DNA of 64,000 nt from a virus (lineage: Duplodnaviria; Caudoviricetes). The stretch spans positions 64,001 through 128,000 of the IMG/VR virus record IMGVR_UViG_3300014208_000024; one strand, given 5' to 3'. The notes beneath the pieces were generated by a model that searched no databases, was not told the origin of the DNA, and worked only from the letters and a program-made list of their open reading frames with translations. Positions 13,104 to 13,204 of the stretch are shown piece after piece; within the stretch, counting starts at the first letter, position 1; the number at the start of each line of letters is the position of its first letter. The position numbers and the translations under genes are program-made.

Positions 13104-13156
13104 TCGGGGAGAAAGGACTCGAACCTCTCGCTGCAACCATTATTTGCATTTCCCCG
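13104..13156 (-). ncRNA. 53-nt mini-tRNA lacking an anticodon arm
   Basis: CGGGGA/TCCCCG acceptor, single TGCAA-ATAATGG-TTGCA arm, AGAGG-TTCGAGT-CCTTT T arm. Confidence 0.65.
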
Positions 13157-13204
13157 TGGTGCTGAGAAGGGGATTTAAACCCCCTGCATCACTAAAGACT
13201 CAGC
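13157..13204 (-). ncRNA. 48-nt acceptor/T-arm minihelix ending in ACCA, overlapping the PTH2-like stop
   Basis: GCTGAG/CTCAGC, GGGGG-TTTAAAT-CCCCT, 3' ACCA. Confidence 0.65.

Follow-up and report, generated by a model that had tools for sequence, protein, structure and literature searches.

Tandem tRNA-shaped elements without an anticodon arm, predicted to be conserved RNAs, at the end of a PTH2 gene in AT-rich jumbo phages

The sequence under study belongs to a 372,283-bp phage record from groundwater (IMG/VR), of which bases 64001-128000 were analysed as a single stretch of 64,000 nt (referred to as the window). The phage genome has a G+C content of 28.7%, an essentially standard code, and 46 tRNA genes as called by ARAGORN. 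On the minus strand of the window, the end of a gene for a PTH2-type peptidyl-tRNA hydrolase runs into two adjoining tRNA-shaped units (referred to as E1 and E2), and the following features make up the locus:

13615-13674, minus strand: promoter-like motif upstream of PTH2, consisting of GTAACTTTTTT, then TATCTTTG, then CGTATAGATTGG
13175-13588, minus strand: PTH2-type peptidyl-tRNA hydrolase gene (Pfam PF01981, E = 1.7e-08)
13204-13157, minus strand: E1, a 48-nt acceptor/T-arm minihelix
13156-13104, minus strand: E2, a 53-nt "top-half" tRNA with acceptor stem, D-like arm, T arm and A73
13068-13103, minus strand: post-E2 spacer of 36 nt, a partial copy of the tRNA-operon promoter/leader motif
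12998-13067, minus strand: tRNA with a 6-nt anticodon loop (ARAGORN "tRNA-???"; Rfam tRNA, 50.4 bits)

Past E2, the spacer and the 6-nt-loop tRNA are followed by tRNA-like genes with long inserts, by RidA and a further gene, and by a CUA suppressor tRNA. A GIY-YIG/NUMOD homing endonuclease gene (14739-15512, minus) lies 1.5 kb upstream of PTH2, and a Ro60/TROVE protein of 501 aa (19255-20760, minus) is encoded 6 kb upstream of E1 and E2 on the same strand. The phage also encodes RtcB (G000:10068-11324) and a CCA-adding-family enzyme (G000:283652-284089). The PTH2 gene itself has TAG at codon 3, its start reading ATG-TTA-TAG here (13580-13588, minus) and ATG-TCG-TAG in a 45%-identical relative (L003 2977-2985).

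The genome has nine good copies of the three-part motif (at G000:77644, which is the window copy at about 13615-13674, and at 4249, 21648, 42308, 51778, 72998, 74347, 140080 and 338490). One is the copy ahead of PTH2, and most immediately precede tRNA clusters. The TAnnTTTG box of the motif is of the Bacteroidota type. The genome motif (TATCTTTGCGTATAGATTGG...) is found upstream of the tRNA clusters and of PTH2, and the spacer behind E2 carries GTTCTTTGACGTATTGG. This spacer is 84-97% identical in the four lineages that keep it whole and is truncated in L080. No terminator-like (intrinsic) site was found on the minus strand between PTH2 and the tRNA-like array.

The tRNA-like genes downstream of the spacer are themselves aberrant. 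The 6-nt-loop tRNA combines a 5-bp anticodon stem with the loop CTTCGA; ARAGORN makes the same odd call, with other loop letters, in two related loci (L004 and L005), and a stretch homologous to this tRNA is present in L079 and L083. At 12640-12995 (minus), two tRNA-like genes have intact acceptor and T arms, with inserts of roughly 75-110 nt replacing the anticodon arm, and at this position the relatives have genes of two different types (L004 and L083 versus our phage and L008). Outside the window, at G000:C1:31092-31169 (minus), we noted an uncalled tRNA-Ile(GAU)-like gene with a perfect 7-bp acceptor, no D arm, the anticodon loop CTGATAC, a 22-nt variable region, a T arm and A73-CAA; ARAGORN called no GAU tRNA-Ile elsewhere in the phage genome.

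A first-pass annotation of this DNA had described, without naming a strand, two tRNA-shaped units of 48 and 53 nt without an anticodon arm, and both the predicted folds and the anatomy agree with this description. The acceptor of E1 (13204-13198 with 13167-13161) consists of 6 bp (GCTGAG/CTCAGC) and a U.U at the seventh position. A linker of 13 nt connects it to a 5-bp T stem (13184-13180 with 13172-13168) that is closed by the 7-nt loop TTTAAAT (13179-13173), and the 3′ end is formed by A73 (13160) and CCA (13159-13157). T54, T55 and A58 are kept in this T loop, with T or A at position 56. RNAalifold additionally pairs positions 7-8 of E1 with 15-16 (13190-13198), yielding a 2-bp mini-hairpin in the linker that underwent a U-A to C-G double change in L004/L005 and that may be either a vestigial D arm or a chance pairing.

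The seven acceptor positions of E2 run from C1-G72 through A6-U67 to a mismatched A7.C66. They are followed by a 4-bp D-like stem with the loop ATAATGG (thus ending in GG), a linker of 4 nt, and a 5-bp T stem with the loop TTCGAGT, in which C56 is present; A73 follows. Where the anticodon arm and variable loop would sit, only 13-14 nt are found in E1 and 4-5 nt in E2, so that neither unit can decode, as had been noted at first pass. The stacked acceptor and T stems amount to 12 bp in E2 and 11-12 bp in E1. Behind the discriminator base, the 3′ trailer of E2 reads C and then AAA, as in about half of the 46 phage tRNA genes; tRNA genes of this type lack an encoded CCA at that position, and an encoded CCA, such as E1 has, occurs in 8 real tRNA genes. 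E2 is present once in the 372-kb genome.

The sequences folded exactly as described when submitted to RNAfold, at -16.7 kcal/mol for E1 and -19.5 kcal/mol for E2 (z = -2.5 each), and the 101-mer of E1 plus E2 reached -36.2 kcal/mol, a value that none of 200 shuffles matched. The genome was also searched, by means of a purpose-written scan, for acceptor stems that close on a T arm directly and leave no space for an anticodon arm. When G-C filters were applied, 7 sites emerged from the 372-kb genome, compared with 0.13 on average in 30 shuffled versions; outside real tRNAs, the matches were E1 and two others, one of which belongs to an aberrant tRNA-like gene. Because E2 fails the G-C filter, it was recovered by a second version requiring a canonical T loop; across the genome and 77 loci, the matches of this version were limited to E1 and E2 with their homologues, plus two fragments of longer tRNA-like genes.

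Standard annotation tools do not report these units. ARAGORN called neither E1 nor E2, even in its mitochondrial and low-threshold modes, and its tmRNA search returned nothing. Rfam gave no tRNA match for either element even at E <= 10, and what it reported at permissive thresholds was noise, namely an 18-bit match to an antisense plastid UTR model and a 6.4-bit tmRNA fragment. Set against the canonical tRNA of Rfam RF00005 and ARAGORN, E1 and E2 have the 7-bp acceptor, the 5-bp T stem, T54, T55, A58 and the discriminator base, and lack the cloverleaf with its anticodon arm.

Two simpler origins were considered and rejected. E1 and E2 are not the halves of a single split or permuted tRNA, the outer strands not being complementary and each unit closing on itself. 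Nor is E2 a recent deletion copy of the phage tRNA-Pro: the match is confined to the start of the acceptor, the T loop and the 3′ acceptor strand, and the C1-G72 pair is not kept in relatives.

E1 also encodes protein. Its first 30 nt are the last 10 codons of PTH2, and the TAA stop of the gene (13177-13175) lies within the T loop. The first-pass annotation had overlooked this overlap, as well as the lineage-specific nature of the CCA and the occurrence of E2 without E1. The 5′ edge of E1 coincides with a codon boundary in all E1-bearing lineages, and the Pfam PF01981 domain ends ahead of the E1-encoded tail. Not a single synonymous change was found in the six leading codons of E1 across four lineages, yet the encoded tails differ (AESLVMQGV, AEPLVVLGG and AESLVMPGG; tail and stop position were compared in six lineages), and in E1-less relatives PTH2 ends about five codons past the shared YK motif. 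This argues that the constraint on E1 acts on RNA or DNA and not on protein. The reading frame is nevertheless accommodated by the fold: a linker of 13 nt goes with the loop TTTAAAT and a linker of 14 nt with the loop TTAAAAT, so that position 56 switches along with the frame-shifting 1-nt indel and the in-frame TAA stays in the loop. Readthrough of this stop would add 12-39 codons.

This overlap might hint towards a switch resembling that of arfA, in which an RNase P cut at the 5′ edge of E1 would strip the stop and leave PTH2 to be translated from a non-stop message. PTH2 would then escape tagging and decay, and accumulate, only when trans-translation is overloaded, thereby acting as a rescue sensor, and E2 would be released as a tRNA look-alike. 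The arfA precedent for such control is described in PMC10107115. The codon boundary at the start of E1 in all lineages and the stop within E1 would suit such a switch, as would a tail that is not conserved as protein, lies beyond the Pfam domain and is dispensed with in E1-less relatives. We nevertheless consider both the switch and its sensor role unlikely, since the argument is entirely inferential and the kept in-frame TAA argues that normal termination matters; moreover, the 6-bp acceptor of E1 with its mismatched seventh position should make it a weaker RNase P substrate than E2.

The distribution of the elements was examined by using PTH2 homologues as bait, which yielded 74 metagenome loci and 9 further contigs. 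The order PTH2-E1-E2 was found in four lineages (our phage; L079 with L004/L005; L083/L084; L080/L081), the PTH2 proteins of which are 71-83% identical to our own, and E1-E2 accompanies PTH2 in all four, even where the downstream DNA differs (L080). In L008/L087, PTH2 is followed by an extra 118-codon gene and then by E2 without E1, so that E2 is known from five lineages of related uncultured phages and E1 from four. A covariance model of E2 matched 10 loci with 6 distinct sequences. Three further groups (L006/L007, L082 and L085/L086) have the extra ORF and neither E1 nor E2, and in the P0011 contig PTH2 directly adjoins the RidA gene, the E1-E2 block being absent. Whether E1 or the ORF comes first, E2 is in every case the final element ahead of the conserved promoter-like spacer. 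The E2 sequence is also matched without a difference over 13093-13157 by a short wastewater contig, the similarity of which breaks off precisely at the junction of E1 and E2. This junction had been described as lacking any spacer, with the ACCA of the first unit touching the 5′ C of the second; this proved correct for our own phage, but relatives show ACAA in place of ACCA or a 1-nt spacer between the elements. The encoded CCA of E1 is present in our phage, L083 and L080, and is replaced by CAA in three of the five distinct E1 sequences.

No mini-tRNA was detected at any of about 70 more distant PTH2 loci. The phage record collection contained no close DNA relatives that we could find, and neither E1 nor E2 nor the spacer was matched when IMG/VR was scanned for their exact patterns. 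In 185,579 prokaryote genomes the E1 pattern had no match, and the 10 matches of the E2 pattern were all due to chance, having no acceptor or T arm. Because E2 occurs without E1 and close relatives lack both, the comparison indicates that E1 and E2 are discrete, separable and dispensable modules. The nearby GIY-YIG/NUMOD endonuclease may be a driver of module swapping between relatives.

Selection on E2 was assessed with its six distinct sequences, aligned by a model built from our own copy alone. In this alignment 96.9% of the stem cells pair, compared with 44-68% when the partners are slid. The first-pass annotation had looked to compensatory changes in relatives, and these are indeed present: double changes affect 8 of the 16 E2 pairs, including three of the five in the T stem. 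Pair 1-72 shifts from C-G to U-A between close lineages, and pair 2-71 is G-C, C-G or G.U among them. RNAalifold run on a plain (unfitted) MAFFT alignment also recovered the E2 helices with 8 compensated pairs. The GG of the D loop, the TTCGA of the T loop, G3-C70 and A73 are invariant. With lengths of 50-53 nt depending on the lineage, E2 is not protein-coding, and on either strand no frame is kept between relatives, the linker of E1 carrying its 1-nt indel as well. Judged from this covariation, E2 is a genuine RNA, structured and possessing the elbow of a tRNA.

The five distinct E1 sequences vary too little for statistics, with 95% of their stem cells pairing and a single double-change series (G-C / G.U / A-U). 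The DNA of E1 is 82-100% identical among lineages, versus 73-84% for the PTH2 coding DNA upstream of it.

These patterns bear on the view that both elements are merely decaying tRNA pseudogenes or recombination scars without function. A tRNA-rich region near a GIY-YIG endonuclease, a block that comes and goes, and an E1 that is bounded exactly by homology breakpoints would all be in keeping with such an origin. We deem it very unlikely, however, as half of the E2 pairs are compensated, the conservation of E1 exceeds that of the coding DNA next to it, and both acceptor strands are kept. Neither element resembles any of the 46 tRNAs beyond a generic T arm, and the double changes are unlikely to be an alignment artefact, given the agreement of RNAalifold on the unfitted alignment. 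As far as sequence comparison can tell, E1 and E2, as genes or as segments of a transcript, specify real non-decoding RNAs that selection maintains within a clade of AT-rich jumbo phages.

The changes at pairs 1-72 and 2-71 also speak to what might recognise these RNAs. With its first two acceptor pairs changing, E2 is unlikely to have a fixed synthetase identity, be it that of proline or another, and recognition would therefore go by shape and not by identity. Aminoacylated acceptors, serving either as the tRNA-like domain of a mini tmRNA or as amino-acid donors for non-ribosomal transfer, could be imagined from the intact acceptor stems with A73, the encoded CCA on E1 of three lineages, and the resemblance of C1-G72/A73 in our own E2 to tRNA-Pro. 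We regard this as extremely improbable. Pair 3-70 is U-A in every E1 sequence and G-C in every E2 sequence, leaving no G3.U70; the first two E2 pairs switch among close lineages; and the searches for tmRNA yielded nothing with ARAGORN and only the 6.4-bit fragment with Rfam. For E2, the changing pairs and the absent G3.U70 thus disfavour use by a synthetase and EF-Tu; the data would be compatible with enzymes that read shape, namely RNase P, RNase Z and the CCA enzyme.

A stack of 12 bp formed by acceptor and T stem is the minimal substrate shape of RNase P and RNase Z. From this we infer a processing model, the reading we favour and to which we assign about an even chance of being right, in which tRNA-processing enzymes would recognise E1 and E2 by their shape as signals for cutting and end-capping where the PTH2 message ends. 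The two elements close the PTH2 unit just upstream of the promoter-like element. Host RNase P would cut 5′ of E2 and possibly 5′ of E1, and the 3′ sides would be finished by the CCA-adding enzyme acting with either RNase Z or exonucleases. The PTH2 message would thereby be parted from the tRNA-like run that lies downstream. E2 would come free as an RNA of about 53 nt, and the PTH2 message would retain at its 3′ end the stable E1 minihelix and a 4-nt tail, a cap that could protect it from 3′ exonucleases. Because PTH2 translation ends in the T loop of E1, ribosomes and the folding of E1 would compete.

The conserved helices, conservation above that of coding DNA, the in-frame TAA, the length of the stack and the tRNA-style 3′ trailer would all be consistent with this processing model, as would the position of E2 before the spacer, the absent terminator and the presence of a CCA-adding-type enzyme in the phage. 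Against it, the tRNA-like gene 36 nt downstream could itself supply an RNase P site, so that punctuation alone does not explain two extra elements or the full elbow of E2. Some close relatives moreover do without the whole block, and the frequent CAA in place of CCA on E1 also counts against it.

The elbow of E2 might in turn indicate that the RNAs act after release as free tRNA look-alikes, either titrating, as a sponge or decoy, some factor that recognises the shape of acceptor, T arm and elbow, or being partners of Ro60 and RtcB. Candidate targets of a decoy would be a modification enzyme or a host toxin that modifies tRNA ends, damage that PTH2 would help to undo. The invariant elbow letters and A73 of E2 are more than a bare cleavage signal needs, the E1-E2 block stays with PTH2 in its four lineages (L080 with its different downstream DNA included), and the phage possesses both RtcB and, 6 kb upstream on the same strand, Ro60/TROVE. 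Bacterial and phage Y RNAs mimic tRNA and sit near Ro60 (PMC4201824). No Rfam Y RNA was found near the Ro60 gene of this phage, however, within either 14000-24000 or 6500-14000, and E1 and E2 are without a Ro60-binding helix or GNCGAA motif. The absence of the block from close relatives and the confinement of its association with PTH2 to the clade (0 of about 70 distant PTH2 loci) likewise weigh against such a role, which we hold to be possible but doubtful. An RNA partner of Ro60 would most naturally be sought in the aberrant tRNA-like run, which is located 6 kb downstream of the Ro60 gene on the same strand.

Phage tRNA clusters are usually read as codon-supply devices. A conserved non-decoding tRNA-shaped pair tied to PTH2 indicates that tRNA shapes have further uses in phages, possibly the processing and protection of messages or else interference with factors that recognise the ends of tRNAs. 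With its stop codon preserved in a T loop, the locus offers a compact and testable case of translation versus RNA folding over the same letters. As standard tRNA finders and Rfam miss such genes, a covariance model like that of E2 could gauge how frequent they are.

Among known systems, the t-elements of plant mitochondria and mascRNA at the 3′ end of MALAT1 are tRNA-like processing signals on longer transcripts. They share with E1 and E2 a non-decoding acceptor/T-arm mimic at a message end, where an RNase P or RNase Z cut would define the ends. A tRNA-like fold at a transcript boundary is likewise what we observe, with E1 overlapping the stop and E2 lying between the coding unit and the spacer. 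Unlike these eukaryotic or organellar signals, the phage units are two in tandem, one overlapping a stop codon and the other having a full D/T elbow and ending in the style of the phage's real tRNAs, and their processing is putative. In mycobacteriophage DS6A, the tmRNA is reduced to its tRNA-like domain and the coding part is absent; this too is a small phage RNA made only of the upper tRNA half, but it needs an alanine identity (G3.U70) that E1 and E2 do not have. RNase P and the CCA enzyme are known to act in vitro on synthetic acceptor-T minihelices, and E1 is exactly such a design, to which E2 adds a D arm; the synthetic minihelices are laboratory constructs, whereas E1 and E2 are natural and conserved. 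The 3′ tRNA-like structures of plant RNA viruses likewise terminate a viral message with a tRNA-like fold, as E1 would after a cut at E2, but have pseudoknotted, aminoacylated acceptors and belong to RNA genomes.

YrlA (PMC4201824) similarly combines a non-decoding T arm, a D arm and an acceptor-like stem, is a substrate of tRNA enzymes, lies near Ro60 and also occurs in phages. It is circularly permuted, however, with ends on the anticodon side that form the Ro60-binding helix and with a GNCGAA motif, whereas E1 and E2 have the normal 5′-3′ order and plain acceptor ends, lack the permuted domain, helix and motif of a Y RNA, and share with this class a Ro60 gene nearby, at a distance of 6 kb. 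On defining features read from sequence, membership of the tRNA, tmRNA and Y RNA classes fails in each case. Our literature search returned no description of anticodon-less tRNA genes or mini-tRNAs in phages. The closest systems in function would be t-elements and mascRNA, and the closest in shape YrlA, tRNA-like-domain tmRNAs and synthetic minihelices; to these, the present instance adds clear covariation and an overlap with a coding end.
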